DNA from: a virus
Taxonomy: Duplodnaviria; Heunggongvirae; Uroviricota; Caudoviricetes
IMG/VR virus record: IMGVR_UViG_2565956724_000002
Direction: 5' to 3' (one strand)
Length of the DNA stretch: 25,326 bases
The notes below the pieces were generated by a model. That model had not been told where the DNA came from. It ran no database searches and saw only the letters and a program-made list of their open reading frames with translations. Numbering within the stretch: the first letter of the stretch is position 1; the number at the start of each line of letters is the position of its first letter. Of the stretch, positions 1 to 23,496 are shown piece by piece. The position numbers and the translations under genes are program-made.

Positions 1-1149
<1,149 letters not shown>

Positions 1150-1159
1150 AGCGCCCCTA

Positions 1160-1187
1160 CAAAAAAGAAAAGCCACCAGCGGCGGCT
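1160..1187 (-). terminator. Putative intrinsic terminator downstream of ref
   Basis: On the minus strand a GCCGCC-GCU-GGUGGC hairpin is followed by a T-run (plus-strand A-run 1161-1170). Confidence 0.4.
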
Positions 1188-1337
1188 TAGCAATACAACT
1201 GAAGGTAGCGCCCGGTACTCAGACTGTGCCGTCCATGGAATATTTGAAAAGGGATCCATCCGTACCGGGCGTGTGATGATTCTGACTCAAGTCACTTGTC
1301 AGTTGTCAATCATTTAAGATTAAAAATAATATATTTA

Positions 1338-1898
1338 TTAGTGCATGATGTTTGCCATTTCATAGGCGTCAGCCAGCAACTCCATCTCTGACTTGTTCAA
1401 CAAGGTGAATTCTTTCTTGCCTCCTACCACGCCATCGGCATGAACAGGGACCAGCCAGGGGTATTTTTCTCTTACTTCAGCCGGTGCTGCATGCTGGTGG
1501 TGCCATCTGCAAAGGGGCAATTGCTTTTTGTGACAACCCGGCGCGGTACGACCGGAGATATGGTGCAGAGACACCTCTTCAGATATTACTCCATGCATGT
1601 AGCAGGCAATGCAGGGGAGAGTGCCAAGAGCATTGGCGATGGTCCGTTCCTCCGCCGTCGGTGTTCGCCCCTTCAAGCCACGAGATTTTATTTTTACCGC
1701 ACTTTTCCGCGTTTTGCTGGCTGGTGGGCGCTCTTTCTGTTTAGCGATACGGCGGTCGATAGAATCCCGCATTTTCTGATATTGCGATTCTCGCCAGGCG
1801 GGGTCAGCCAACTTTTCCCGTTGCCGAGCGATCGCTCGTTCTCTGGCTGCCTTCTGCCACTCGCGGCGCTGTTCAAGTTTTTGTTCGATTGTTTTCAT
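1338..1898 (-). CDS. ref: Ref, recombination enhancement function (HNH-type endonuclease), 186 aa
   Basis: From the internal Met, MKTIEQKLEQRREWQKAARERAIARQREKLADP... matches P1 Ref as I recall it. The HNH-like motif CRWHHQH is visible. The ORF track's N-terminal extension back to 1976 runs through a hairpin and is probably not translated. Confidence 0.88.
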   Translation of the reverse strand: MKTIEQKLEQRREWQKAARERAIARQREKLADPAWRESQYQKMRDSIDRRIAKQKERPPASKTRKSAVKIKSRGLKGRTPTAEERTIANALGTLPCIACYMHGVISEEVSLHHISGRTAPGCHKKQLPLCRWHHQHAAPAEVREKYPWLVPVHADGVVGGKKEFTLLNKSEMELLADAYEMANIMH

Positions 1899-1903
1899 AT
1901 GGC

Positions 1904-1929
1904 AAAAAAAAGGCGGCCTAATGGCCGCC
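1904..1929 (-). terminator. Hairpin plus T8 immediately 5' of the ref start codon (terminator or attenuator-like)
   Basis: Perfect stem GGCGGCC / GGCCGCC (1912-1918, 1923-1929) with loop TAAT. On the minus strand it is followed by eight T (plus-strand A8 at 1904-1911). Confidence 0.5.
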
Positions 1930-1996
1930 AATGATGTCAAGGAGTGAAGTAATGGCAACGTCTTCGTAGTTGACAAAAACTGCGGCTAAATTATAG

Positions 1997-2013
1997 CAAT
2001 CAATTAGAGCAAT
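1997..2013 (-). promoter_or_regulatory. C1 operator-like site upstream of ref (Op2-like)
   Basis: The reverse complement, ATTGCTCTAATTGATTG, matches the P1 C1 operator consensus ATTGCTCTAATAAATTT at 14 of 17 positions. Confidence 0.6.
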
Positions 2014-2145
2014 GGTAGATATTTTGTTTCTCGCGAATCACATTTTTTCACTTCAGTACCTGTGTGCTATACTCCTTCTTGATTGATTGGATGCGGAATA
2101 CAAACCCGCTCTTTTGTGCAGCCTGGCTCCTTGCCAGGCTTTTTT

Positions 2146-2457
2146 TTATTTCATCATGGAAGCTGTTAACGCTTTGGACCTTGCTGAACTGATTGAAAGG
2201 GCATTGTTTACCTTACCCAGGAGTTCGCCAAATTCCCCCATCACTCTAGTAAGCCCGCGCCGCGCTTCCTCCTCCGTTGCATTCATCACAAAATGTTCAG
2301 CACTCCGCATGCTTTTAACGGGGAACGCAACAGATATCGAGTCGATATCAGGCATCCTATCGCTCAACTTTACGGTGACAATGACAGATGGCGACAGAAT
2401 ATTAGTGCTTACAGACAGCACTACATATTTTCCGTCGATGTTGAAATCCTTTCTCAT
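2146..2457 (-). CDS. Hypothetical protein between cre and ref (cra-like by position)
   Basis: 103-aa minus-strand ORF, same strand as cre and ref. GGTGG sits just upstream of the ATG, and a C1 operator-like site lies at 2474-2490, immediately upstream. Confidence 0.5.
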   Translation of the reverse strand: MRKDFNIDGKYVVLSVSTNILSPSVIVTVKLSDRMPDIDSISVAFPVKSMRSAEHFVMNATEEEARRGLTRVMGEFGELLGKVNNALSISSARSKALTASMMK

Positions 2458-2473
2458 ATGCCACCATAAATAT

Positions 2474-2490
2474 CAAAGAATTAGAGCAAT
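2474..2490 (-). promoter_or_regulatory. C1 operator-like site between cre and the cra-like ORF
   Basis: The reverse complement, ATTGCTCTAATTCTTTG, matches the consensus through the core ATTGCTCTAAT (13 of 17). Confidence 0.5.
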
Positions 2491-2507
2491 CATTTACGCG
2501 TTAATGG

Positions 2508-3539
2508 CTAATTGCCATCTTCCAGCAGGCGCACCATTGCCCCTGTTTCACTATCCAGGTTACGGATATAGTTCATGACAATATTTACGTTGGTCCAGCC
2601 ACCAGCTTGCATGATCTCCGGTATTGAAACTCCGGCACGGGCCATATCTCGCGCGGCTCCGACACGGGCACTGTGTCCAGACCAGGCCAGGTACCTCTGT
2701 CCAGAGTCATCCTTAGCCCCGTAAATCAATCGGTGAGTTGCTTCAAAAATCCCTTCTAGGGCGCGAGTTGATAGCTGGCTGGTGGGTGATGGCGAGGCAA
2801 CACCATTTTTTCTGACCCGGCAAAACAGGTAGTTATTCGGATCATCAGCCACACCAGAGACAGAAATCCATCGCTCGACCAGTTTAGTTACCCCCAGGCT
2901 AAGTGCCTTCTCTACACCTGCGGTGCTAACCAGCGTTTTCGTTCTGCCAATATGGATTAACATTCTCCCACCGTCAGTACGTGAGATATCTTTAACCCTG
3001 ATCCTGGCAATTTCGGCTATACGTAACAGGGTGTTATAAGCAATCCCCAGAAATGCCAGATTACGTATATCCTGGCAGCGATCGCTATTTTCCATGAGTG
3101 AACGAACCTGGTCGAAATCAGTGCGTTCGAACGCTAGTGCCTGTTTTGCACGTTCACCGGCATCAACGTTTTCTTTTCGGATCCGCCGCATAACCAGTGA
3201 AACAGCATTGCTATCACTTGGTCGCGGCAGCCCGGACCGACGATGAAGCATGTTTAGCTGGCCCAAATGTTGCTGGATAGTTTTTACTGCCAGACCGCGC
3301 GCCTGAAGATATAGAAGATAATCGCGAACATCTTCAGGTTCTGCGGGAAACCATTTCCGGTTATTCAACTTGCACCATGCCGCCCACGACCGGCAAACGG
3401 ACAGAAGCATTTTCCAGGTATGCTCAGAAAACGCCTGGCGATCCCTGAACATGTCCATCAGGTTCTTGCGAACCTCATCACTCGTTGCATCGACCGGTAA
3501 TGCAGGCAAATTTTGGTGTACGGTCAGTAAATTGGACAT
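2508..3539 (-). CDS. cre: Cre site-specific tyrosine recombinase, 343 aa
   Basis: The translation MSNLLTVHQNLPALPVDATSDEVRKNLMDMFRDRQAFSEHTWKMLLSVCRSW... is essentially P1 Cre end to end. ATG confirmed at 3539-3537. Confidence 0.97.
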   Translation of the reverse strand: MSNLLTVHQNLPALPVDATSDEVRKNLMDMFRDRQAFSEHTWKMLLSVCRSWAAWCKLNNRKWFPAEPEDVRDYLLYLQARGLAVKTIQQHLGQLNMLHRRSGLPRPSDSNAVSLVMRRIRKENVDAGERAKQALAFERTDFDQVRSLMENSDRCQDIRNLAFLGIAYNTLLRIAEIARIRVKDISRTDGGRMLIHIGRTKTLVSTAGVEKALSLGVTKLVERWISVSGVADDPNNYLFCRVRKNGVASPSPTSQLSTRALEGIFEATHRLIYGAKDDSGQRYLAWSGHSARVGAARDMARAGVSIPEIMQAGGWTNVNIVMNYIRNLDSETGAMVRLLEDGN

Positions 3540-3546
3540 TTAACAC

Positions 3547-3768
3547 TCAGATAATGGTTTTAAGTAAAGTGTACAGGATCGGCTCTGCCTTTACCTGTTT
3601 ATGGTTCTCGTCATAGAAACGCCAGCGACCGCGCGTGCGTTCTATTTTCTCTTCACCGCGCGATAATGACAGTTGGCAACTATCACGATCAAACCCTTTT
3701 GCCCGCCAGTAACCACGGTTTTTCTCAAGCTCAAGATGAGTGGACACTTTAGCAGCTGAATATCCCAT
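3547..3768 (-). CDS. Small hypothetical ORF (73 aa) in the loxP-cre interval
   Basis: ATG preceded by GAGGTG at good spacing. No homology recognised, and it overlaps the expected cre promoter region. Confidence 0.25.
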   Translation of the reverse strand: MGYSAAKVSTHLELEKNRGYWRAKGFDRDSCQLSLSRGEEKIERTRGRWRFYDENHKQVKAEPILYTLLKTII

Positions 3769-3864
3769 TTTTCACCTCTGATTGATTGGTGGTGCTAAGT
3801 GCGCTACGCGAAATCTGGAGTACTAACACTGCCAACATTTCGCAGATTTTACGTAGCGCAACCT

Positions 3865-3939
3865 TGATCAAATGATCAAGTGATCACTATTTGACCTGAT
3901 AAGGTATTGAACTGTATGGATTTACAGGTGAATTGATCA
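3865..3939. promoter_or_regulatory. Cluster of four TGATCA (Dam GATC) hexamers upstream of cre
   Basis: TGATCA at 3865-3870, 3873-3878, 3881-3886 and 3934-3939. This is consistent with the described Dam-sensitive cre promoter region of P1. Confidence 0.6.
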
Positions 3940-3957
3940 TGTTCAATAACCCTTAAG

Positions 3958-3991
3958 ATAACTTCGTATAATGTATGCTATACGAAGTTAT
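3958..3991. other. loxP: loxP recombination site (34 bp)
   Basis: Exact ATAACTTCGTATA-ATGTATGC-TATACGAAGTTAT: two 13-bp inverted repeats around the 8-bp spacer. Confidence 0.98.
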
Positions 3992-4034
3992 CAGGTCAGA
4001 AGAGGAGTTTACGTCCAGCTGCGCACAAAAATCA

Positions 4035-4051
4035 AGAATTATTAGAGCAAT
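4035..4051 (-). promoter_or_regulatory. C1 operator-like site (Op99-like) in immC
   Basis: The reverse complement, ATTGCTCTAATAATTCT, matches the consensus at 15 of 17. Confidence 0.6.
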
Positions 4052-4111
4052 AAATTTTGAGAGAAAAATCCCACTCCACCAGCTAAAAACTGGATTGTTT
4101 TTCATAGTTGT

Positions 4112-4138
4112 TTGACAATTGCTCTAATAAATTATAGT
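4112..4138 (+). promoter_or_regulatory. Putative coi/c1 promoter with an overlapping C1 operator (Op99a-like)
   Basis: TTGACA at 4112-4117 directly abuts ATTGCTCTAATAAATTA (4118-4134, 16 of 17 to consensus), with TATAGT at 4133-4138 as a possible -10. Confidence 0.65.
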
Positions 4139-4372
4139 TTTGCCGCCGTTTCGTAATACGACTTTGGATTCACTATTTAATGTGTCTTCAGCGTTGTAGA
4201 GCGGCTCAGAAGGAAATGAGCAAACAGGGAAACCTTATACAACGGCATTACAGCTATGCATTGCTCATCTTACACACAGCGCAATGTTGTTAGATTACCC
4301 CAGCATGGATCATGGGTGAAACAGTAGGTCAGAGCTTCAGGCTCTGTGTTGTCAATACAGTGAGACATAATT

Positions 4373-4582
4373 ATGGCTTTCATTCAACCAACCATCGACG
4401 ACGTTAGACATTGCTCTAACGCTTTATCTGTAGACCCTGCCGAAACCGACGCTGCCCGCGCCATTGCTGAACACTACTCAAAGATATCCAATCAGGAGTA
4501 CCGCATCACCCAAGACGACCTGGATGACCTCACTGACACAATCGAATATCTCATGGCAACTAACCAGTTAGACTCACAATAA
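4373..4582 (+). CDS. coi: Coi, C1 inactivator, 69 aa
   Basis: 69-aa ORF directly upstream of c1, the length and position of P1 coi. Sequence MAFIQPTIDDVRHCSNALSVDPAETD... Confidence 0.85.
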   Translation: MAFIQPTIDDVRHCSNALSVDPAETDAARAIAEHYSKISNQEYRITQDDLDDLTDTIEYLMATNQLDSQ

Positions 4583-4692
4583 ATGCACTAATAAATCTAT
4601 TATTTTTGTTTGATCCCTCTATAATATAGGTCAGTAATGACCGGTTTTCTCAGCCGGGCGTTATTGACCATGTCAATTCTGGAGGAGGATCA

Positions 4693-5544
4693 ATGATAAA
4701 TTATGTCTACGGCGAACAACTGTACCAGGAGTTCGTCAGCTTCAGGGATCTCTTTCTAAAAAAAGCTGTTGCACGCGCCCAACACGTTGATACAGCCAGC
4801 GACGGTCGTCCTGTACGCCCGGTTGTCGTTCTACCGTTCAAAGAAACTGACAGCATTCAGGCTGAAATTGATAAATGGACTTTAATGGCGCGGGAACTGG
4901 AACAGTACCCAGACCTCAATATCCCAAAGACTATTTTATATCCAGTGCCTAACATCCTTCGCGGTGTGCGTAAGGTTACAACTTATCAGACAGAAGCTGT
5001 GAACAGCGTCAACATGACCGCTGGCCGCATTATTCATCTGATTGATAAGGACATTCGCATCCAAAAAAGCGCGGGGATCAATGAGCACAGTGCGAAATAC
5101 ATAGAGAACCTGGAAGCAACAAAAGAGCTAATGAAGCAGTACCCGGAGGATGAAAAATTCCGTATGCGCGTACACGGCTTTAGCGAAACAATGCTGCGCG
5201 TCCACTACATTTCCAGTAGCCCTAACTACAATGATGGTAAATCAGTTAGTTACCATGTGCCACTGTGTGGCGTGTTTATCTGCGATGAAACTCTCCGTGA
5301 TGGAATTATCATCAACGGTGAATTCGAAAAAGCAAAATTTAGCCTTTATGACTCCATAGAACCGATCATCTGCGACCGCTGGCCGCAAGCAAAAATATAT
5401 CGCCTGGCAGATATTGAAAATGTAAAAAAACAAATTGCCATCACTCGCGAAGAGAAAAAGGTTAAGTCAGCCGCATCAGTTACGCGCAGCCGTAAAACCA
5501 AGAAGGGGCAGCCAGTAAACGACAACCCCGAAAGCGCGCAATAA
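4693..5544 (+). CDS. c1: C1 repressor of lysis, 283 aa
   Basis: MINYVYGEQLYQEFVSFRDLFLKKAVARAQ... matches P1 C1 in sequence and length. Strong RBS GGAGGAGG upstream of the ATG at 4693. Confidence 0.95.
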   Translation: MINYVYGEQLYQEFVSFRDLFLKKAVARAQHVDTASDGRPVRPVVVLPFKETDSIQAEIDKWTLMARELEQYPDLNIPKTILYPVPNILRGVRKVTTYQTEAVNSVNMTAGRIIHLIDKDIRIQKSAGINEHSAKYIENLEATKELMKQYPEDEKFRMRVHGFSETMLRVHYISSSPNYNDGKSVSYHVPLCGVFICDETLRDGIIINGEFEKAKFSLYDSIEPIICDRWPQAKIYRLADIENVKKQIAITREEKKVKSAASVTRSRKTKKGQPVNDNPESAQ

Positions 5545-5549
5545 ATTAT

Positions 5550-5567
5550 GCCCGGCATCAACCGGGC
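5550..5567. terminator. Hairpin between the convergent c1 and antirepressor-like genes (possible bidirectional terminator)
   Basis: Stem GCCCGG / CCGGGC with loop CATCAA, flanked by moderately U-rich sequence on both strands. Confidence 0.45.
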
Positions 5568-5576
5568 ATTCTTCCA

Positions 5577-6695
5577 TTATTCAGCCGCCACCGGTTTTAA
5601 CAAGCCAGCATCGAGCAGTTTACGCGTCAACCACTGCTGGCCTTTACCCGTTAATTGAGGCGTCAACCGTATCTGGTAGCCATCTTCATCATCCAGCACC
5701 ACTTCTTTCACCGTGAAATACCCCGCGTTGATGTACTGCTGGAACGGCACATTTTTACGTCCACCGGACGCTATCAGGATGCCGTTCTCCCGTAACCAGA
5801 CAAACAGCGCGTTTTGCTTAAGTCCAACAACCTTTGCAAAATTCCCAATCAGGATCCCTTTAGCTACTGATACCCGGTCGGCAAAATCGACTTTAGGAGC
5901 GGCGGCCACCAGCTGCTGATTTAGCTGGTGGGCTTTCTGTTCCAGAAGTTGCTTTTGTTCAGCCAGTTCGGCAGCCAGGCGTAGGGCTTCAGGAAGCGTC
6001 TGGGGGATTGCGATCGGTTGCTGTTCTTTTTGTCGGAAGTAGCTGTCTTCCAGTTTTTCAAAGAATGCCCATGCCTGATCGGTTTCGAGCATTTTAGCGT
6101 GGCGGGCTGCGCCGCGTTCTGTCCAGAGGGTGAGTGAGCGAACATTGCGAGCAATTTTTACAGAGTAGTTTAAAGCTACTCTGTGCTTCAACTCGCGCAA
6201 TGATTCTCCTTCAACTTTGAAAAAGTGCTTCCCTTCAACAAAGCGTACTTTGTTCTCATGATGATTTTGGCGAATACGGATTGTTTCTGTCCCATACCCT
6301 CTAGCAAGAGTCTCGGTTGTCACTACACGCACTCCCTGCCATTCCAGAACGGGAATTTCATCAGACTGATTCTGAACAACCACCAGCTCCGATTCCTGAA
6401 CTGAAGGTGCATGAATTTTTTCTGATTTAACGTTAGTTGCTTTCATTCTGTGTGCCTCCTTGCGTGATTCGGCTGCGGCGGTTGCGTAATTCAGATGCCC
6501 CTGTTCGAGCAGGTATTCGCGGATATCAGACAGCAGGATGCGGTGAACTGCGTTCTTGTCCTTTCTCCGGTAAAGTTGTTTGGTGATCATGAAGTAGTTG
6601 GCAATAACGCCCGGTATATCCCTAGTACTGATACAGGCAGTGTGCTGTTCAATTGCCTCGATCATCTCTTCACGGGTAACTAATGACGTTCTCAT
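5577..6695 (-). CDS. Phage antirepressor-like protein (ORF6N/Bro-N-like central region, KilA-C-like C-terminus), 372 aa
   Basis: The central segment VLEWQGVRVVTTETLARGYGTETIRIRQNHHENKVRFVEGKHFFKVEGESL and the C-terminal segment ...LFVWLRENGILIASGGRKNVPFQQYINAGYFTVKEV... resemble these domain families from memory. The ATG overlaps the upstream ORF's stop (ATGA). Confidence 0.6.
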   Translation of the reverse strand: MRTSLVTREEMIEAIEQHTACISTRDIPGVIANYFMITKQLYRRKDKNAVHRILLSDIREYLLEQGHLNYATAAAESRKEAHRMKATNVKSEKIHAPSVQESELVVVQNQSDEIPVLEWQGVRVVTTETLARGYGTETIRIRQNHHENKVRFVEGKHFFKVEGESLRELKHRVALNYSVKIARNVRSLTLWTERGAARHAKMLETDQAWAFFEKLEDSYFRQKEQQPIAIPQTLPEALRLAAELAEQKQLLEQKAHQLNQQLVAAAPKVDFADRVSVAKGILIGNFAKVVGLKQNALFVWLRENGILIASGGRKNVPFQQYINAGYFTVKEVVLDDEDGYQIRLTPQLTGKGQQWLTRKLLDAGLLKPVAAE

Positions 6696-6913
6696 AGTCC
6701 CTCCTGAGCAGAAGCGTTAACAGGGAGGCACCAGTAACTGAGAGAATTGCGTGAATCAGTGGAAAAACGGGCAGAGAAAATACATGGGGCGTCAGGAAGC
6801 TGAGAATGGGCCTCATCTTCTGTCGGTGCAATAACGAAGTGATAGTGACGTTTTTGGCAGGAGTAAAAGCGCCAGATAAATTCAGGATGAATTGGGGTAG
6901 GGACAGTAGCCAT
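6692..6913 (-). CDS. Small hypothetical protein (73 aa), translationally coupled to the antirepressor-like gene
   Basis: AAAGGAGG lies about 8 nt upstream of the ATG at 6913. The stop overlaps the downstream start by 4 nt. Confidence 0.5.
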   Translation of the reverse strand: MATVPTPIHPEFIWRFYSCQKRHYHFVIAPTEDEAHSQLPDAPCIFSARFSTDSRNSLSYWCLPVNASAQEGL

Positions 6914-7098
6914 AATGGCAGCCTCCTTTGACTAAGTTAAGGAGCTACCGCGTGAGGTCTCAATCTCAATGGCGGTAGCACTGACTGGGTTGAGACTACC
7001 GGCGTCAAAGGGAACCGGCCTGCCTTTCGGCAGCCCAGCCAGCACTACCATTGATTTCGGAGCTAAACGCTACGTATGGCTGTGCGATGGCATGACAC

Positions 7099-7120
7099 AA
7101 AAAAAGACGCTTTCGGCGTC
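7099..7120 (-). terminator. Intrinsic terminator, minus strand (pacB 3' end and/or attenuator in the leader of the downstream operon)
   Basis: Stem GACGC / GCGTC (7106-7110, 7116-7120) with loop CGAAA on the minus strand, followed by U7 (plus-strand A7 at 7099-7105). Confidence 0.6.
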
Positions 7121-7244
7121 TGTGTCGCCTTTGACATTATCCGGGGTCTCAATCCCGGCACCCGTTTTAATGAGGTGCCTGATAAGCATAAACCGAAAAT
7201 GCCTCAAGGCGCAAGAGGTCAGGTTCAATGTAACATCGGCAGTC

Positions 7245-7261
7245 AAAAAACACAATTTATT
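7245..7261 (-). promoter_or_regulatory. C1 operator-like site just downstream of the pacB stop
   Basis: The reverse complement, CTTGCTCTAATAAATTG, matches the consensus at 15 of 17. Confidence 0.6.
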
Positions 7262-8463
7262 AGAGCAAGTGTTTATTCATTAAGCCATGCCAGAGCTTCA
7301 TCAACCTGCGCTTCGTCTTCGACGCTAAGCACTTCGTCCTGGGGAACATAATCCGCCAGCATAGCGAAACAATATGTATCCCAATGGTCTGGTGAGTGCA
7401 GGTTGAGTTTTTTCTTCATATCCTCCTTACTCATCACCTTCCATTGACCTGCGGAGTTAATCCCTACAGGGATTTTCGACGCTTCCTCAATAGTTTCATT
7501 ACCCTTATCCAGTCTCATACGACCAGATTTTACGGCCTCTGCGGCTTGAACGTTGGCATAAGCACGTTTATCAAAGTACAGGCTCTTATCTTCACGGCTA
7601 TGCATCTTTTTACCCCAGCGTATACGCTGTACGGTAATACCATAATACTCGTACATCAGATCCGCCGTTGCTTTACCCAGGCCATCGCCGTCTATCGCTA
7701 TGGTGATATTGGGGAATCGCTCAGGATTACATTCTGCGAAAATTTTGGCGGCAAGCTGCGTTTCTGTAACGTCTGTGTATTCCAGCATTCGATAGTTGAT
7801 TACACGGCGTTTATTTCGCTGGCCGGACACCATCATGATATTGATAAAGGACTTATCCCGTCCTGTACCACCAGCAACGTCCACACATGCAAGCCAGCCC
7901 CATCCTTTGGCAATCTTGACTTTCCGCCGCGTCGCACGTTCAACCTCATCACGTCCAAGAAGGAAGCCGTCCTGTAATTTAGGGAATAGGCCGCGTACCT
8001 TAATCATGTACATAGGGTTATCACGCCCGCCGTACTCCGCCAGCTTCATTTTGATAAATTCTGACGTTACCAGCGGTGATTCCTCACTGTTAAGCGTGAT
8101 CGCCGTATAAACGCCATCTGGGTTACCAGGACGCTTGGCCAGTTTATGGTGAGTATCGTAGAAATAGCCGCTTGGGCGTGTAGGCTGTGACAGTAATAAG
8201 ATGCGGTTATCCTGTCCGGTAAGAGCACCGGTGATGATACCGAAAGCTCTATCACTGACACCGGAGGCTTCATCGATAATATACAGAAGATGATCTGCGT
8301 GTTCACCGGCGAGAACTTCTTCACTTCCCAGACGAAAGCCCTTCGGTACTACAGTCCATACACCTTTACCAGTAGACTGGCCCCCTGAATCTCCAGACAA
8401 CCAGTATCACTTATTTAAGTGATAGTCTTAATACTAGTTTTTAGACTAGTCATTGGAGAGCAG

Positions 8464-8829
8464 ATGATTGATGTCTTAGGACCGGAGAAACGCAGACGGC
8501 GTACCACACAGGAAAAGATCGCAATTGTTCAGCAGAGTTTTGAACCGGGGATGACGGTCTCCCTCGTTGCCCGGCAACATGGTGTAGCAGCCAGCCAGTT
8601 ATTTCTCTGGCGTAAGCAATACCAGGAAGGAAGTCTTACTGCTGTCGCCGCCGGAGAACAGGTTGTTCCTGCCTCTGAACTTGCTGCCGCCATGAAGCAG
8701 ATTAAAGAACTCCAGCGCCTGCTCGGCAAGAAAACGATGGAAAATGAACTCCTCAAAGAAGCCGTTGAATATGGACGGGCAAAAAAGTGGATAGCGCACG
8801 CGCCCTTATTGCCCGGGGATGGGGAGTAA
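8464..8829 (+). CDS. insC: IS2 OrfA (InsC)
   Basis: [56 protein letters not shown]... Confidence 0.93.
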
Positions 8830-9692
8830 GCTTAGTCAGCCGTTGTCTCCGGGTGTCGCGTGCGCAGTTGCACGTCATTCTCAGACGAACCGATGACTGG
8901 ATGGATGGCCGCCGCAGTCGTCACACTGATGATACGGATGTGCTTCTCCGTATACACCATGTTATCGGAGAGCTGCCCACGTATGGTTATCGTCGGGTAT
9001 GGGCGCTGCTTCGCAGACAGGCAGAACTTGATGGTATGCCTGCGATCAATGCCAAACGTGTTTACCGGATCATGCGCCAGAATGCGCTGTTGCTTGAGCG
9101 AAAACCTGCTGTACCGCCATCGAAACGGGCACATACAGGCAGAGTGGCTGTGAAAGAAAGTAATCAGCGATGGTGCTCTGACGGGTTCGAGTTCCGCTGT
9201 GATAACGGAGAAAAACTGCGAGTCACGTTCGCGCTGGACTGCTGTGACCGTGAGGCACTGCACTGGGCGGTCACTACGGGCGGCTTCAACAGTGAAACAG
9301 TACAGGACGTCATGCTGGGAGCGGTGGAACGCCGCTTCGGCAACGAGCTTCCGGCGTCTCCAGTAGAGTGGCTGACGGATAATGGTTCATGCTACCGGGC
9401 TAATGAAACACGGCAGTTTGCCCGGATGTTGGGGCTTGAACCGAAGAGCACGGCGGTGCGGAGTCCGGAGAGTAACGGCATAGCAGAGAGCTTCGTGAAA
9501 ACGATAAAGCGTGACTACATCAGTGTCATGCCCAAACCAGACGGGTTAACGGCAGCAAAGAACCTTGCAGAGGCGTTCGAGCATTATAACGAATGGCATC
9601 CGCATAGTGCACTGGGTTATCGCTCGCCACGGGAATATCTACGGCAGCAAGCCAGTAATGGGTTAAGTGATAACAGGTGTCTGGAAATATAG
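8787..9692 (+). CDS. insD: IS2 OrfB (InsD) transposase
   Basis: [34 protein letters not shown]... contains a DDE-type integrase core and overlaps insC in the usual IS3-family arrangement. Confidence 0.93.
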
Positions 9693-10092
9693 GGGCAAAT
9701 CCAACCAGTAACCTCATAGAAAGCGGTTTCTGTCAGAACAAAATAATCAGCAAGCCATGGAAAACGGCTGGTGGCAGTAGCCCAGTTTATCTTGATGTAC
9801 TTGAATATACCGGTCATTACCTGCTGAATTTTGTTCGCAACGATAATGGCGCGGGCACCGGGATACATGATTATGAACAACATGATCATGATAGAAGTCA
9901 TGTCTGATTTCCCGGTACCGTGACCAGACGAAACAGATGTCTTGCTACCCTGTTCCTGCACAGACTCAATAATCAGATCCTGCTGCCAGGTAGGTGTTTT
10001 GCCGAACAAAACATCAGCGGCCGCAATCCAGTCATAACGATATAGCGCCACCAGCTCGCGCCAACGTGGATCCGTTACGCAACTTCTGGCCA

Positions 10093-10694
10093 TTAATCAT
10101 CATCCCCGTATAGCTTGCGGGTAACTTCTTCGTCTTCCTCCTCGTCTTCGTCCAGGTCTTGTTCCAGCCATGGGTCGTTTGATACACCTTCAGTATCAAC
10201 ATCTCCATAACCGCCTGTATCAACGATATCGGCGATTTCTTCCCTACGCTGCTCAATCCACAATGCGGCATCGGCGCGGCGGTTGGCGGCCCGTTCTCGC
10301 GCAACTTTGTCCAGATCTTCAAGAGAAGGGCCACCGACGGCTGTTTGCCTTTCCTCATCATCGGTATTGGTCTTAGGAGCACGCAGATCGGCTTTGATTT
10401 GCTCCAGCATCAGGGGCGGCACTTTCCCGCCATGCGCCTCGATGAATTCAGCTGCTTCCAGCACTGACCAGTTATTTTCACGCTTTCGTTCGTACTGTCA
10501 TCAATCAAAACAGACGAATACTTAGACACAGCGATAGCTTTTAAGCGCAGATAAACATCGCGCTTATCGACATCCAGATGCGGGTATTCCTTTTCAAGAA
10601 TTGCTGCGAGTTCTTTCGCTGATAGAAGAGATTTAGTGCGGATCATGTAATTCGCAATCTCGTACGATGTTATTCGTGAGTGATTTATTTCCAT
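10093..10694 (-). pseudogene. Small terminase-like gene immediately upstream of pacB, split across two frames (frameshift)
   Basis: One ORF (ATG at 10694, stop at 10410) has an HTH-like N-terminal part; a second, in another frame (open from 10497 to the stop at 10093), has an acidic tail DEDEEEDEE. They overlap by about 90 nt, and the final stop overlaps the pacB ATG (TAATG). Confidence 0.4.
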
Positions 10695-10794
10695 GAAGTG
10701 GCGTCCCTGCCAGTTAAGTAACATCCTGTCACCTACTGATTAGCCCATGTCAACTAATCAACGTGGAATATAATACCATCGATTAAAGAAATAG

Positions 10795-10811
10795 CAATAC
10801 ATTAGAGCAAT
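10795..10811 (-). promoter_or_regulatory. C1 operator-like site upstream of the small terminase-like gene
   Basis: The reverse complement, ATTGCTCTAATGTATTG, has the core ATTGCTCTAAT (14 of 17). Confidence 0.4.
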
Positions 10812-10812
10812 T

Positions 10813-11856
10813 TTATCTAACGCTCGACGAGTAACTTGTGATAGCGCCGACTCCAAGCGCGTAATCAAAGAACAATCGTTGATGCATCGCCAGCCTACCG
10901 TGCGTCTTCTCCCAATTATCGCGGTCACGCTCAATATCACGCTGGCATGACTGGCACAGAGGAATTGCGTAAATGTCATGCGCGCATAATCGACTATGAC
11001 GAACGATATAAGGCGTAATGTGAGCGCCAGCTCCCGCAGCTCCACAGCCACAGCATGGACGGGAAGCCACAAAGTCCATGTACTCGGGCAATTTTAGCGA
11101 TTGAAGTTTTGGTATTTTGAAATGCGCCATACCTGGGTCGGAGTCAACATCCACAGGGCATACTTTTGCACGCATCGGCGCGGCGCGTTCTTCCATCATC
11201 TGAACATATGCTGTAGCGCGATCGTCATACGGGCGAATATCCGCCTCTTTCAGAGGTCCGCTATCCTGCGGAGCAGCCTTCATCTTATTTATTGATATGC
11301 GGCAGACTTCTTCCGGCATCAGGTGCATCATGTTACGCATGAAAGCCCACCAGCACAGCTCCTGAATACTTAAATCATGGCTATCTGAAAGGCCCATTTC
11401 CTGACGGGCGACATCCAGTATCCAGTTAACGCGATTATTGTGCAGCGTTTCTTTCAGCTCATTAAAACCACGCATCCGGTAATGGTTATCGTGATGCCAG
11501 CACAACAACACCGCGCTATTGTCTCGTTCAGCGTGGACAATATGGTTGTCACACCAGCTACGATCTGCGGCCTGGCATTGCCCCTCTTTCCTGCGCAACC
11601 ACGCCACCAGCGCGTCAATTCCACCAATACGGCGAAACAGTTCATCGCTGTTAAAAAACGGCTGCAACGCCTCATTTGTTGCTATAGTTTGCTCGGAAGC
11701 AACGAGGCCGTCGTCCATGTGCTCGATTAACTCACGCGGCACCGGCTCCATAATAAATTTACGGCCAGCCTCCACCAGCTTTCTGACCTCCTGATCCACT
11801 TTGAACGTGGCGAGGCCAAGTTCTTTCTGTACAAAGGGAGTAATTACGGCTTTCAC
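10813..11856 (-). CDS. Cys/His-rich hypothetical protein (347 aa) with HNH-like motifs, upstream of the terminase genes
   Basis: GTG start with RBS AAAGGTG. Motifs [22 protein letters not shown] and CCGCG...HSRLCAHD...PLCQSC. It is not P1 PacA as I recall it, and no TGATCA pac-type cluster lies in this region. Confidence 0.45.
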
Positions 11857-11883
11857 ATCACACCTTTAATCACTGATTGGGCT

Positions 11884-12063
11884 TTATATGCTGCCCGGCA
11901 TTCTCTGTTTAAGCACAACCATTTCCTGACGGCATAACACAGCAATAGCGGTCCTGGCACCAATTTGCTTACCAGCCAGGTATTGCTTTACCTCGCGGCG
12001 ACTCACGCCATCAAGAAGCATCTTTAACGCTTCACGGGACAATTTGTTGTATTTGCGTGCCAT
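11884..12063 (-). CDS. Small hypothetical protein downstream of doc (pdc-like by position)
   Basis: 59 aa from the ATG at 12063 (MARKYNKLSREALKMLLDGVSRREVKQYLAGKQ...), directly after the doc stop. Confidence 0.4.
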   Translation of the reverse strand: MARKYNKLSREALKMLLDGVSRREVKQYLAGKQIGARTAIAVLCRQEMVVLKQRMPGSI

Positions 12064-12067
12064 TAAT

Positions 12068-12448
12068 CTACTCCGCAGAACCATACAATCTACGTAACGT
12101 GTCGGCGACAGAAGATACAGATATCTCTCCGGTCGCAGCCCCTACGGTAAGGTCTGCCAGTTCAGGTGAATCAAATACCTGCACCCCGTTACGGCGTAGA
12201 AATAACAGCGCACTGTTTAGCGCGGTACGCTTATTGGCATCATTGAATATATGCCCTCTCGCTGTAGCCACCAGGTAGGTGGCGGAGACTTCGAAAAGGT
12301 CGGTGATCTCTTCGTAGGCAACTCTGGCCTGAACTCTCCCGATAATGGCCTCTGCCCTACCCGGATCTGACATTCCCGGCAGGCCGCCGTAGCGGTTTAT
12401 ATTCGCATCATGAAGCGCAATAAGTTCTTCCGGTGATATATGCCTCAT
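12068..12448 (-). CDS. doc: Doc toxin (Fic-fold kinase) of the phd-doc addiction module, 126 aa
   Basis: [43 protein letters not shown]... matches P1 Doc nearly exactly. Confidence 0.95.
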
Positions 12449-12669
12449 TATCGGTTAACCAGTTCCTTGTTGGTGGAGTCCAGGGTGTCAAACAGGGATG
12501 CAAATTCAGCATCCAGCGCCGCTTTTTTGTAGGCTTCGAAAGTAGCCTTGCTGACAATTACTGCTGGCTCACGGCCTCTGCGGGTGATTTCAACCTCTTC
12601 CCCGGCCTCAACATTGTTGAGCACTTCAGAAAGGTTGCCGCGCGCGGTACGGAAGTTAATGGATTGCAT
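12448..12669 (-). CDS. phd: Phd antitoxin, 73 aa
   Basis: [49 protein letters not shown]... matches P1 Phd. Its stop overlaps the doc start. Confidence 0.95.
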
Positions 12670-12710
12670 AAATACCTCGTGTACTCGTTATGTGTACACA
12701 ATTATAAACT
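12670..12710 (-). promoter_or_regulatory. phd-doc promoter/operator region with a GTGTACAC palindrome
   Basis: Palindrome TGTGTACACA at 12691-12700 and a GTGTAC half-site at 12679-12684, immediately upstream of phd. Confidence 0.5.
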
Positions 12711-12845
12711 TCACAGGCATAAAGCACCAGCACTTTGCGGCTTAACAAACCTCTAGGCAGGTCATTCGTAGCCTAATGTCCGAACTGCTAAAGCATCCAA
12801 GTTGCTGTAGAATCACCGCCAATTACATAAGCCTGAAATAAGTGG

Positions 12846-13463
12846 ATGAAAATGACAAGTATTCAACAACGTGCAGAGCTTCATCGTCAAATCTGGCAAA
12901 TTGCTAACGATGTCAGGGGTTCGGTCGATGGATGGGATTTTAAGCAATACGTTCTGGGCGCACTTTTCTACCGTTTTATCAGCGAAAATTTTTCCAGCTA
13001 TATTGAAGCCGGTGATGACAGCATCTGTTATGCGAAACTGGATGACAGCGTAATTACTGATGACATTAAAGACGATGCCATCAAAACTAAAGGCTACTTC
13101 ATCTACCCCAGTCAGCTTTTCTGCAACGTAGCGGCGAAAGCAAATACCAATGACAGACTGAATGCAGATTTAAACAGCATCTTCGTTGCTATCGAAAGTT
13201 CTGCTTACGGTTATCCTTCAGAAGCTGACATCAAAGGTTTGTTTGCTGATTTCGATACCACCAGTAACCGCCTGGGTAACACCGTTAAAGATAAAAATGC
13301 CCGCCTGGCTGCGGTTCTGAAAGGGGTTGAAGGGTTAAAACTTGGTGACTTCAACGAACATCAGATTGACCTGTTCGGTGATGCCTATGAGTTCCTGATT
13401 TCTAACTATGCGGCAAATGCCGGTAAGTCAGGCGGTGAGTTCTTTACACCGCAGCACGTCTCC
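12846..13463 (+). pseudogene. hsdM: Type I restriction-modification methyltransferase HsdM, N-terminal fragment only (type IC / EcoR124-like by recollection), cut off by IS1
   Basis: [44 protein letters not shown]... ending ...[16 protein letters not shown], which reaches the HsdM FxTP motif. The ORF then runs straight into the IS1 terminus at 13464. Confidence 0.7.
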
Positions 13464-13518
13464 GGTGATGTTGCCAACTTACTGATTTAGTGTATGATGG
13501 TGTTTTTGAGGTGCTCCA

Positions 13519-14216: not shown

Positions 14217-15424
14217 GTTGGAGTCATTACCCGAATGATGGTTGCCCATACATCAAAGGACTGGTTAACCGGCAGAGCGATGTCAAAGGTGTCGGTCGCA
14301 AGAGTACGCCAGATCATGATGCGAAGACGCAGCATATCCTGTTCATGAGACAGGTATTCCTTCAGGGTGCGGAACTGTAGGGAACCCAGGTCCAGACCAA
14401 ATTCACGCTGTGCTTCATACGCCGCCTGTACCGTGTGCTCAGCCGCGATAACGAACTGGCTTGGGAACAGGGTGTATTTCTTCATTTCGTGGTTGATCAG
14501 CGGGATCAGCTCAGGAGCGGCTTCAATATTGATTTCCGTCTCAATTGCGATCTCAGTGCCTTTATCCGGCGCTTTGGAGAACGACAGGGAAATCTGACCA
14601 ATGTTGTAGTTCAGAGAGCAGGTAACAGTGATTTGCTCACCAGCAGCATTAGTAAACGAGTGAAGTAGGCTGCCGGAACCGTTATCAACAACAGACTTAA
14701 TACGGTTAACGTAGATGTTAGTGCGACCTTTTCGGATTGGTACATTCTGGCCTTCGAAGTCTTCCATCTTGAAGGTTGCGGTTTTGCTGGTGCCATCGGA
14801 GCTTGCCACCAGCACATAGCGGCGGCGTAACTGGCTGTACACACCGACGGATTGCATGTCCAGAACATCACCAGCAGCATAAGAACCAAAAGAGGAACCT
14901 GCCACGTTAAAGACTTCATAGATGTCGGACTGGTCACGCGTAACCGGAATGAAGGTACACGCATCAGCGGTAGCTGCCCCCAACTGAACAGGCAGGATCA
15001 TCGCGAGGAATAAAGGCAGACGCATAACACCGTCAGAAACGCTCATCATCTCTGCTGCGACGGATTCCAGCATCGCTTTATTAGTGGCATCCATGCTATT
15101 GCGGGTGGACTCAATCAGGCAGTTTTCCAGCGTCTGGTGGCAGGAGGCCAGAATTTCCGGACGCGGCATAGATTTATGTGCTGCGGCGTAGTCAGCCAGT
15201 GCACTTGCCCACGCGGTAGCAATTTGAGCGGTGGCATTATCAGAGATACCCGCAAAAATTGGGTCTTTACGTGCAGCTTCAAGGATAGATGCGGCACGCG
15301 CGGCATCATCTTTGATGAATTGGTTATCAGTACCGAACTGTGCTGTACTTGCCCAGCCAAGAACGGCTTTAGAGCGTTTTGCGATATCTGCAATACGATT
15401 CTGGTATTCGCGTAAGTTACTCAA
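14210..15424 (-). pseudogene. Capsid-like structural protein gene (P1 gene 23-like by position next to par), with its 3' end lost at the IS1 junction
   Basis: Probable TTG start at 15424 with RBS AAGGAAG. The last ~6 codons and the stop lie inside the IS1 terminus. The identity is inferred from position and composition only. Confidence 0.35.
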
Positions 15425-19299: not shown

Positions 19300-19384
19300 C
19301 TGCAACGATCAGGGATCTATATGGATCTAATTGGGATCTGTATGGACCTAATTATTGGATCTACCCAGTGGATAATGTGGATAA
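19300..19384. promoter_or_regulatory. oriR: oriR core: five GATC-containing heptamer repeats plus tandem DnaA boxes
   Basis: GATC at 19307, 19314, 19324, 19335 and 19358. TGTGGATAA (a perfect DnaA box on the other strand) at 19376-19384 and GTGGATAAT at 19368-19376. Confidence 0.85.
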
Positions 19385-21960: not shown

Positions 21961-23496
21961 ATGAACGATACCTCTTCTGACGACATCCTTCTGCTGAAAC
22001 AGCGCCTGGCCGAACAGGAAGCGTTGATCCACGCCCTGCAGGAAAAGCTGAGCAACCGGGAACGCGAAATAGACCATCTGCAGGCGCAACTGGATAAGCT
22101 GCGCCGGATGAACTTCGGCAGTCGTTCCGAAAAGGTATCCCGCCGTATCGCGCAAATGGAAGCTGACCTGAACCTGCTGCAGCAGGAAAGCGATACGCTG
22201 ACCGGCCGGGTGGATGACCCGGCAGTGCAGCGCCCGCTGCGTCAGACCCGCACCCGCAAACCGTTCCCTGAGTCACTCCCACGGGATGAGAAGCGGCTGC
22301 TGCCGACTGAGCCGTGTTGCCCGGAGTGCGGTGGTTCGCTGAGTTACCTGGGTGAGGATGCCGCCGAACAGCTGGAGCTGATGCGCAGCGCCTTCCGGGT
22401 TATCCGGACAGTCCGTGAAAAGCATGCCTGCCGTCGGTGCGATCGCATCGTTCAGGCCCCGGCTCCTTCGCGCCCCATCGAACGGGGGATCGCCGGACCG
22501 GGGCTGCTGGCCCGAGTGCTGACCTCAAAGTATGCAGAGCACACACCGCTGTATCGCCAGTCGGAGATCTATGCCCGCCAGGGTGTAGTGTTGAGTCGTT
22601 CTGTACTGTCGGGCTGGGTGGATGCGTGTTGTCGTCTGCTGGCACCGCTGGATGAAGCCCTTCAGCACTATGTCCTGACCGACGGCAAACTCCATGCTGA
22701 CGATACGCCTGTCCCGGTGCTGTTGCCGGGCAATAAGAAGACGAAGACCGGGCGCTTATGGACGTACGTTCGAGACGACCGCAACGCCGGATCAGCGCTG
22801 GCCCCCGCAGTGTGGTTCGCTTACAGCCCGGACAGAAAAGGTATCCACCCTCAGACCCATCTTGCAGGCTTCAGTGGCGTACTGCAGGCTGATGCCTACG
22901 CCGGGTTCAACGAGCTCTACCGCGACGGCCATATAAAGGAAGCCGCGTGCTGGGCCCATGCCCGCCGAAAAATCCACGATGTTCACGTCCGTACCCCGTC
23001 AGTCCTGACGGAGGAGGCGCTGAAACGGATCGGCGAGCTGTATGCCATCGAGTCGGAGATCAGAGGTAAAAGAGCAGAGGAACGGCAGGCAGTCCGGCAC
23101 CAAAAAGTGCTGCCGCTGCTGGCGTCACTGGAGGGGTGGCTGCGGGAGAAACAGAAAACCCTCTCAAGGCACTCAGAACTGGCGAAGGCGTTCGGGTATG
23201 CGCTGAACCAGTGGCCGGCGCTGATCCGCTATGCAGAAGATGGCTGGGTGGAGGTGGATAATAACATTGCCGAAAACGCCCTACGACGGGTCAGTCTGGG
23301 GAGAAAAAACTGGCTGTTCTTCGGCTCGGATCATGGTGGTGAGCGCGGTGCGTCACTGTACAGTCTTATCGGGACGTGCAAATTAAACGGCGTGGATCCG
23401 GAACGCTATCTGCATTATGTACTTGATGTCATCGCCGACTGGCCTGTGAACCGGGTGGGTGCTCTGCTCCCGTGGCGGGTTACTCTGCCTGCCTGA
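21961..23496 (+). CDS. tnpC: IS66-family transposase TnpC (511 aa)
   Basis: N-terminal coiled coil, a CxxC...CxxC zinc motif (CCPECG...CRRCD) and a DDE region, as in IS66 transposases. Confidence 0.85.
   Translation: MNDTSSDDILLLKQRLAEQEALIHALQEKLSNREREIDHLQAQLDKLRRMNFGSRSEKVSRRIAQMEADLNLLQQESDTLTGRVDDPAVQRPLRQTRTRKPFPESLPRDEKRLLPTEPCCPECGGSLSYLGEDAAEQLELMRSAFRVIRTVREKHACRRCDRIVQAPAPSRPIERGIAGPGLLARVLTSKYAEHTPLYRQSEIYARQGVVLSRSVLSGWVDACCRLLAPLDEALQHYVLTDGKLHADDTPVPVLLPGNKKTKTGRLWTYVRDDRNAGSALAPAVWFAYSPDRKGIHPQTHLAGFSGVLQADAYAGFNELYRDGHIKEAACWAHARRKIHDVHVRTPSVLTEEALKRIGELYAIESEIRGKRAEERQAVRHQKVLPLLASLEGWLREKQKTLSRHSELAKAFGYALNQWPALIRYAEDGWVEVDNNIAENALRRVSLGRKNWLFFGSDHGGERGASLYSLIGTCKLNGVDPERYLHYVLDVIADWPVNRVGALLPWRVTLPA

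Follow-up and report, generated by a model that had tools for sequence, protein, structure and literature searches.

Four TGATCA hexamers lie close together between the cra gene and loxP in the window (the whole stretch of viral DNA that was analysed, 25,326 nucleotides). In phage P1, Dam-site hexamers of this type are found both in the control region of cre and in the packaging site pac, as an earlier note on this DNA had stated and as the GenBank annotations and PMC10028697 bear out. The question raised by this locus is whether the hexamers serve the control of cre only, or whether they have an additional role in packaging. The hexamers are as follows.

3865-3870, minus strand: TGATCA hexamer nearest to cra; Dam site 4 of P7 and Dam site 3 of P1.
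3873-3878, minus strand: TGATCA hexamer; Dam site 3 of P7 and Dam site 2 of P1.
3881-3886, minus strand: TGATCA hexamer; Dam site 2 of P7, TGACCA in the lab P1 reference.
3934-3939, unstranded: lone TGATCA; Dam site 1 of both P1 and P7, 18 bp from loxP.

These four positions were confirmed in the sequence, as was the start-to-start spacing of exactly 8 bp for the hexamers at 3865, 3873 and 3881: the triplet is an 8-bp unit present in three tandem copies. The earlier note had placed the cluster between cre and loxP. This holds on the loxP side; on the other side, cra (3547-3768) intervenes before cre is reached. The total number of TGATCA words in the window, 8, is the same as expected from shuffling (mean of 8.06), and therefore the signal is in the clustering, not in the number. 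Three TGATCA within 16 bp were found in none of 3000 mononucleotide shuffles of the window, and the Poisson expectation for such a triplet is approximately 1e-4. In addition, all four GATCs at the locus have T..A flanks, compared with 4 of the 96 GATCs elsewhere in the window. The cra-loxP cluster is the only TGATCR cluster in the window; the absence of a pac-type cluster near the terminase genes had thus been described correctly. The only other GATC cluster is that of oriR at 19307-19361.

The window coordinate is 3975 minus the P1 coordinate, from an alignment with P1 in which BLAST gave no net indels. On this scale, the hexamers are at P1/P7 coordinates 36-41, 89-94, 97-102, and 105-110. 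In the GenBank record of P7, coordinates 37-40, 90-93, 98-101, and 106-109 are labelled as "Dam recognition sites within the regulatory region of cre", four in all. These sites 1-4 correspond to 3935-3938, 3882-3885, 3874-3877, and 3866-3869 of the window, and all four GATCs coincide. The P1 reference record annotates three Dam sites in the cre regulatory region, not four, because lab P1 reads TGACCA at the third hexamer of the window (3881). Alignment of the P1 lox-cre interval, which had been proposed as a check, thus showed that P1 matches the window at three hexamers and P7 at the complete set of four; the positions relative to loxP and cra are the same in the window and in the P1 and P7 records (AF234172, AF503408, X03453). 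What the note had named as evidence against a further role, identical hexamers in P1 with a promoter-only role, is essentially what is seen: both P1 and P7 annotate them as cre-regulatory Dam sites, although one of the four is altered in P1. Judged by this alignment, the four hexamers are the Dam sites of the P1/P7 cra-cre control region, which are already known and annotated. We consider it highly probable (roughly 0.85) that they are Dam methylation sites of the P3cre control region, and not a packaging site.

The other elements of the interval and its surroundings are listed below.

3866-3871 (P1 104-109): -35 box TTGATC of P3cre (formerly pR1), overlapping the hexamer at 3865; P1 annotation.
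3874-3879: alternative -35 box of pR1, overlapping the hexamer at 3873; from X03453.
3846-3851 (P1 124-129), minus strand: -10 box TAAAAT of P3cre/pR1, reading towards cra-cre; P1 annotation.
3910-3929 (P1/P7 46-65): LexA box, CTGT-N8-ACAG, separating the triplet from the lone hexamer; P1 and P7 annotation.
3907-3934, plus strand: P2coi promoter, with its -35 box TTGAAC at 3907-3912, reading through loxP towards coi/c1.
3929-3934 (P1 41-46): -10 box of P2coi, a leftward promoter, touching the lone hexamer; P1 annotation.
3958-3991, minus strand: loxP, identical to the canonical 34-bp site.
3547-3768, minus strand: cra, 73 aa, the first gene downstream of the Dam-site promoter.
2508-3539, minus strand: cre, a 343-aa recombinase 99.1% identical to P1 Cre.
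4693-5544, plus strand: c1, beyond loxP.
4035-4051, minus strand: C1 operator Oc1e, beyond loxP as seen from the hexamers, minus-strand sequence ATTGCTCTAATAATTCT; transferred from the P1 annotation by alignment without net indels.
About 4006-4035: P4cre, the upstream promoter, adjoining Oc1e.

P1 and P7 have the same arrangement as the window: hexamers overlapping the annotated -35 boxes, a LexA box, the -10 box, and cra-cre downstream. In the original 1986 entry, X03453, pR1 has two -35 boxes as alternatives, and each falls on one of the cra-proximal hexamers. Both TTGATC boxes of the window, and its TAAAAT, are identical to those of P1. Furthermore, the cra-cre operon is intact and loxP is canonical beside the hexamers. 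It should be mentioned that a simple consensus scan finds no promoter in 3700-4400. The distance from the -35 to the -10 box is 14 bp for the annotated P3cre and 22 bp for the alternative box; because of this odd spacing, the use of the promoter rests on old experiments. A literature search did not find text describing pR1.

Three further features of this interval were observed. The -10 box of P2coi (3929-3934) is TGAATT in the window, with G at position 2, whereas P1, like every other loxP-bearing P1-like locus of the collection, has TAAATT. The sole other carrier of TGAATT seen is the plasmid NZ_CP060066.1, which is 100% identical to the window over 3540-4100 (561 bp), yet has intact terminase genes. 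This A-to-G change at position 2 would probably weaken the SOS induction of coi. Between the hexamers and cra, there is an inverted repeat with arms of 18 nt at 3800-3817 and 3843-3860 on the minus strand, which are 89% complementary and separated by 25 nt; one of the arms contains the -10 box of P3cre. As RNA, this repeat folds at -28.1 kcal/mol (z = -4.3). Its arms show parallel changes in the diverged relative L020, and phage D6 retains only TTCGCGTAGCG of it. The repeat could be an operator, or a 5'-UTR hairpin formed solely in transcripts from the upstream P4cre. As for Cra, a Pfam search gave no match, and the PHROG family that it matches, PHROG 804, is one of unknown function; Cra was set aside on these grounds as a DNA-binding reader of the sites.

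The arrangement of the boxes suggests how methylation might act. The two cra-proximal copies of the triplet would supply alternative TTGATC -35 boxes of a weak sigma-70 promoter, P3cre. Adenine methylation of the GATCs in the triplet would lower the use of this promoter. On hemimethylated or unmethylated DNA, that is, just after replication or upon entry into a Dam-limiting cell, transcription of cra-cre from P3cre may rise briefly, and it would fall again when the sites become fully methylated. Synthesis of Cre would then coincide with the stage at which dimers of the plasmid can form. The lone hexamer at 3934 is just downstream of the -10 box of the divergent, LexA-controlled P2coi; it more probably modulates P2coi, or has no such effect. 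The promoter pR1 is presumably more active in dam- cells. Dam methylation is reported to alter cre expression (Sternberg et al. 1986, J Mol Biol 187:197). The effect of methylation on P3cre and its direction are inferred here, from published work and by analogy with IS10 and dnaA p2; by this analogy, the methylation logic at P3cre would be that of the IS10 transposase promoter. IS10 pIN and dnaA p2 are paradigms of Dam-sensitive promoters, in which transcription depends on the methylation state and hence on replication (summarised in PMC3701705). In both, GATC is inside the promoter elements (PMC3701705), as in the cluster of the window. The position differs: GATC overlaps the -10 box in IS10 pIN and dnaA p2, whereas in P3cre of the window it overlaps the -35 box and is present in three tandem copies.

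A variant of this explanation is that the hexamers act mainly via SeqA, which would bind and sequester the hemimethylated cluster after replication and thereby control cre/coi transcription or access to loxP; the control would then be exerted by a protein and not directly on RNA polymerase. Several GATCs fall within 22 bp and a further one is 53 bp distant, which is consistent with this, and repression of dnaA p2 by SeqA at clustered GATCs has been described (PMC3701705). Furthermore, a GATC cluster is used at oriR of the same replicon: the five-GATC cluster of P1/P7 oriR (incC) is in the window at 19307-19361, where the GATCs match those annotated in P7 as 'Dam methylation sites 1-5 in the region of incC' of oriR. 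For binding, SeqA favours sites that are separated by roughly one turn of the helix. The 8-bp spacing of the triplet sets neighbouring GATCs on different faces of the helix, whereas the spacing at oriR is 7/10/11/23; the flanks at oriR are mostly not TGATCR and its function is origin control, so that it is unlike the cra-loxP cluster also in these respects. Data on SeqA at the cra-loxP locus were not found. Action mainly through SeqA seems unlikely, and it would not exclude the methylation control of P3cre described above.

The relatives of this locus show which parts of the control region are maintained. Across the lox-cra interval, 24 phage records and 704 plasmid records match the window at 96-100% identity, and the window is, to judge from this identity, part of a P1-type plasmid prophage. 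For a closer comparison, 97 viral-contig loci were gathered by a search for loxP alone, of which 88 are P1-like; because only loxP was used in the search, the hexamers had no influence on which loci entered the sample. Of the 88 P1-like loci, 80 have the triple hexamer TGATCACTTGATCATTTGATCA. Therefore, the unusual allele is that of the lab P1 reference, with TGACCA at the distal hexamer, and not that of the window, which has the allele of these 80 natural relatives. A two-hexamer allele, in which one 8-bp repeat unit is missing, is found in five loci, and the distal hexamer reads TGACCA in two and TGAACA in one. The two cra-proximal hexamers are invariant (88/88). At the lone hexamer, 77 loci read TGATCA and the other 11 read TGATTA. 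The LexA box is conserved in all 88 and also in the diverged loci L020 and L099. The TGACCA of lab P1, the two-unit alleles, and TGATTA at site 1 indicate that the distal hexamer can be dispensed with in nature, and so can site 1.

These alleles also bear on the possibility that the repeat is a slippage product without a function of its own, in which only the -35-like word TTGA matters and GATC is incidental. The copy number changes by whole 8-bp units, as in the five two-unit alleles, and lab P1 has a mutated distal copy, with no consequence known. In addition, most relatives are 96-99% identical, so that invariance among them says little. More can be learned from the diverged loci L020/L228 (Cre 79% and PacA 70% identical) and L099, in which much of the intergenic sequence has been rewritten. 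They keep TGATCA next to the -10 box, as well as the LexA box, the GCTACG..AA.T block holding the -10 box, and the inverted repeat. The cra-nearest hexamer is kept in L020 and L099, and the lone hexamer on the loxP side is doubled in L020 and lost in L099. Against slippage, L020 and L099 keep GATC-containing hexamers at both positions in spite of the rewritten flanks, the clustering is far beyond chance in the shuffles, and the 1986 paper of Sternberg et al. reports regulation by methylation in its title. A repeat without its own function is extremely improbable. On the other hand, a model in which any GATC will do leaves unexplained why all four sites of the window, and likewise all four GATC sites in L020, are TGATCA.

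Some side observations were also made. In the L020 and L099 lineages, an extra ORF of 353-356 aa (11271-12332 on the minus strand in L020, 1662-2732 in L099), with no Pfam match, is located between the Dam/LexA regulatory region and cra-cre. The exact arms of loxP recur many times in draft assemblies of unrelated bacteria (loci L105-L184), and the matches listed in a scan of genome contigs consist almost wholly of such loxP remnants; the carriers among them include Gemmata, Paracaedibacter, Legionella tunisiensis, and Sediminibacterium. Left-over library linkers are the probable origin of these arms, and not biology. In phage D6, whose system is Dre/rox (Dre is 41% identical to Cre), there is no GATC between rox and dre (1076-1207 of its locus, L305). 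This means that methylation control is not universal for Cre-type recombinases.

The cause of the missing pac can be traced by comparison with the phage vB_EcoM-673R5, with which the window is collinear from 645 to 13462 with the following two exceptions.

8375-9703, plus strand: IS2 insertion in pacB, 1.3 kb relative to 673R5, with TnpA (275.8 bits) and TnpB (713.1 bits).
10492-10494, unstranded: junction of a 1.1-kb deletion relative to 673R5, with GTA microhomology.

The deletion removed pac with its seven hexamers, LPpac, approximately 790 nt of the 5' end of pacA (the 5' two-thirds of the gene), and the 3' half of lpa. The segment of 673R5 that is missing from the window holds the seven pac hexamers in the same 4+3 layout as in P1; pac is thus absent from the window because the deletion removed it. 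The missing pac is, from this comparison, a case of decay by deletion and not of relocation. The same junction is found in 3 of approximately 540 E. coli records covering the region: the state with both IS2 and the deletion is rare and derived, and is common to three E. coli plasmids. One of them, p22AR0118B, has the deletion and IS2 in common with the window and differs from it elsewhere, and all four hexamers are kept in it. Its PGAP annotation describes the terminase gene as "missing N-terminus" and a neighbouring remnant, by position the lpa fragment, as "missing C-terminus". PLSDB holds no record covering more than 70% of the window. Since pacA, pacB, and lpa are not intact, the window can make neither pacase nor the late-promoter activator. 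The earlier note had asked for a role beyond cre regulation on the ground that pac was missing; this absence was misread, as pac was lost by the deletion and pacB was split by IS2.

Other parts of the window were also found to differ from P1 or to be incomplete. The type I hsdM gene (12846-13490) is truncated to 214 aa, corresponding to profile positions 1-215 of 515. Near 14232, homology to the phd-doc side gives way abruptly to homology to the par/rep region of P1 (57.6-66 kb in P1), and the P1 morphogenesis genes between those regions are therefore absent here. A further mobile element is indicated by an IS66-family transposase ORF at 21961-23496 (511 aa, 467.5 bits). Between c1 and pacB, at 5577-6913, there are two ORFs, one of 372 aa that is antirepressor-like and one of 73 aa that is Icd-like (NCBIfam NF033153); Icd and a Roi DNA-binding protein are annotated at the equivalent position of 673R5, and P1 has nothing there.

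The likeness of the cluster to pac has nevertheless to be weighed. The pac of P1 is a stretch of 161-162 bp inside pacA with seven TGATCA/G hexamers (2723, 2730, 2742, 2757, 2853, 2865, and 2876 in the locus L003), and it shares both the Dam-site hexamer and the clustering with the cluster of the window. In intact relatives, pac and the cre-side cluster are both within about 4.5 kb of loxP. The cluster might accordingly be taken for a substitute or auxiliary packaging site, or for a binding site of pacase (PacA/PacB), the enzyme that recognises the methylated TGATCA/G hexamers of pac. The hexamer word is the same, and TGATCR clusters are confined to few places: in the 100 kb of P7, the sole ones are the two halves of pac and the cra-loxP triplet, and in 21 kb of the diverged L228, they are pac and two pairs beside loxP. 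The T..A flanks at the four GATCs, given above, point in the same direction. In addition, P1 with every pac hexamer recoded showed a decrease in titre of only about 9-fold (PMC10028697); in that experiment, however, the cells also carried a pac+ phagemid.

Several lines of evidence stand against a packaging site. A complete pac (7-8 hexamers within 190 bp) and the cre-side hexamers occur together in 50 of the 52 P1-like loci that extend at least 6.5 kb on the c1 side of loxP. Since these relatives have both, the cluster is not a replacement of pac. The additional packaging role that the note had raised is not supported. The layouts also differ. The cluster has 3+1 hexamers across 75 bp, with the two groups 47 bp apart around the LexA box, whereas pac has 4+3 hexamers across about 160 bp, with the groups about 90 bp apart around the IHF site and the cleavage site. 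The cluster lies in the intergenic promoter region between cra and loxP; pac, absent from the window, lies in the coding region at the 5' side of pacA and contains the IHF site and cleavage points. The IHF consensus WATCAANNNNTTR has no match in 3860-3960, and no similarity to the pac core was found beyond the hexamer word. Moreover, without intact pacA, pacB, and lpa, pacase cannot be made from the window. Simpler explanations are available for the shared word as well: TTGATCA is similar to a -35 box, and the three hexamers of the triplet are copies of a single 8-bp unit. A replacement pac site is ruled out by the deletion of all seven pac hexamers, the co-occurrence in 50 of 52 loci, and the lack of an IHF box or pac core, and a substitute, auxiliary, or pacase-binding site of any kind is very improbable.

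There is, in addition, a small chance that one reader of TGATCA, pacase or another protein, serves both pac and the cra-loxP locus, because the clusters are confined to these two places and have the T..A flanks. Such a reader might couple cre/coi transcription or the use of loxP to packaging late in infection, or might give a weak auxiliary entry. Relatives were also compared to see whether other repeats at pac go together with matching repeats upstream of cre. In the diverged L228, the hexamer is the same at pac and upstream of cre. D6 offers a single weak contrast: there is no TGATCR cluster in its pacA and no GATC upstream of dre. The pacA of D6 does have a GATC-rich stretch (L305 4941-5092), and the hexamers there are GGATCA, AGATCA, TGATCC, and GGATCT, none of which is TGATCR. 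A shared reader is, like the packaging site itself, very doubtful, and methylation control of P3cre is the preferred reading of the cluster.

P1 and P7 are viable phages, whereas the element from which the window comes is a decayed, P1-derived plasmid that is unable to package itself. As regards the hexamers, little is at stake: both reference records, P1 and P7, already show these sites, and the promoter was described in 1986. The common natural form of the control region is the allele with three TGATCA, and not that of lab P1. If true, a reader shared with pac would tie the control of Cre-lox to packaging in a classic model phage.
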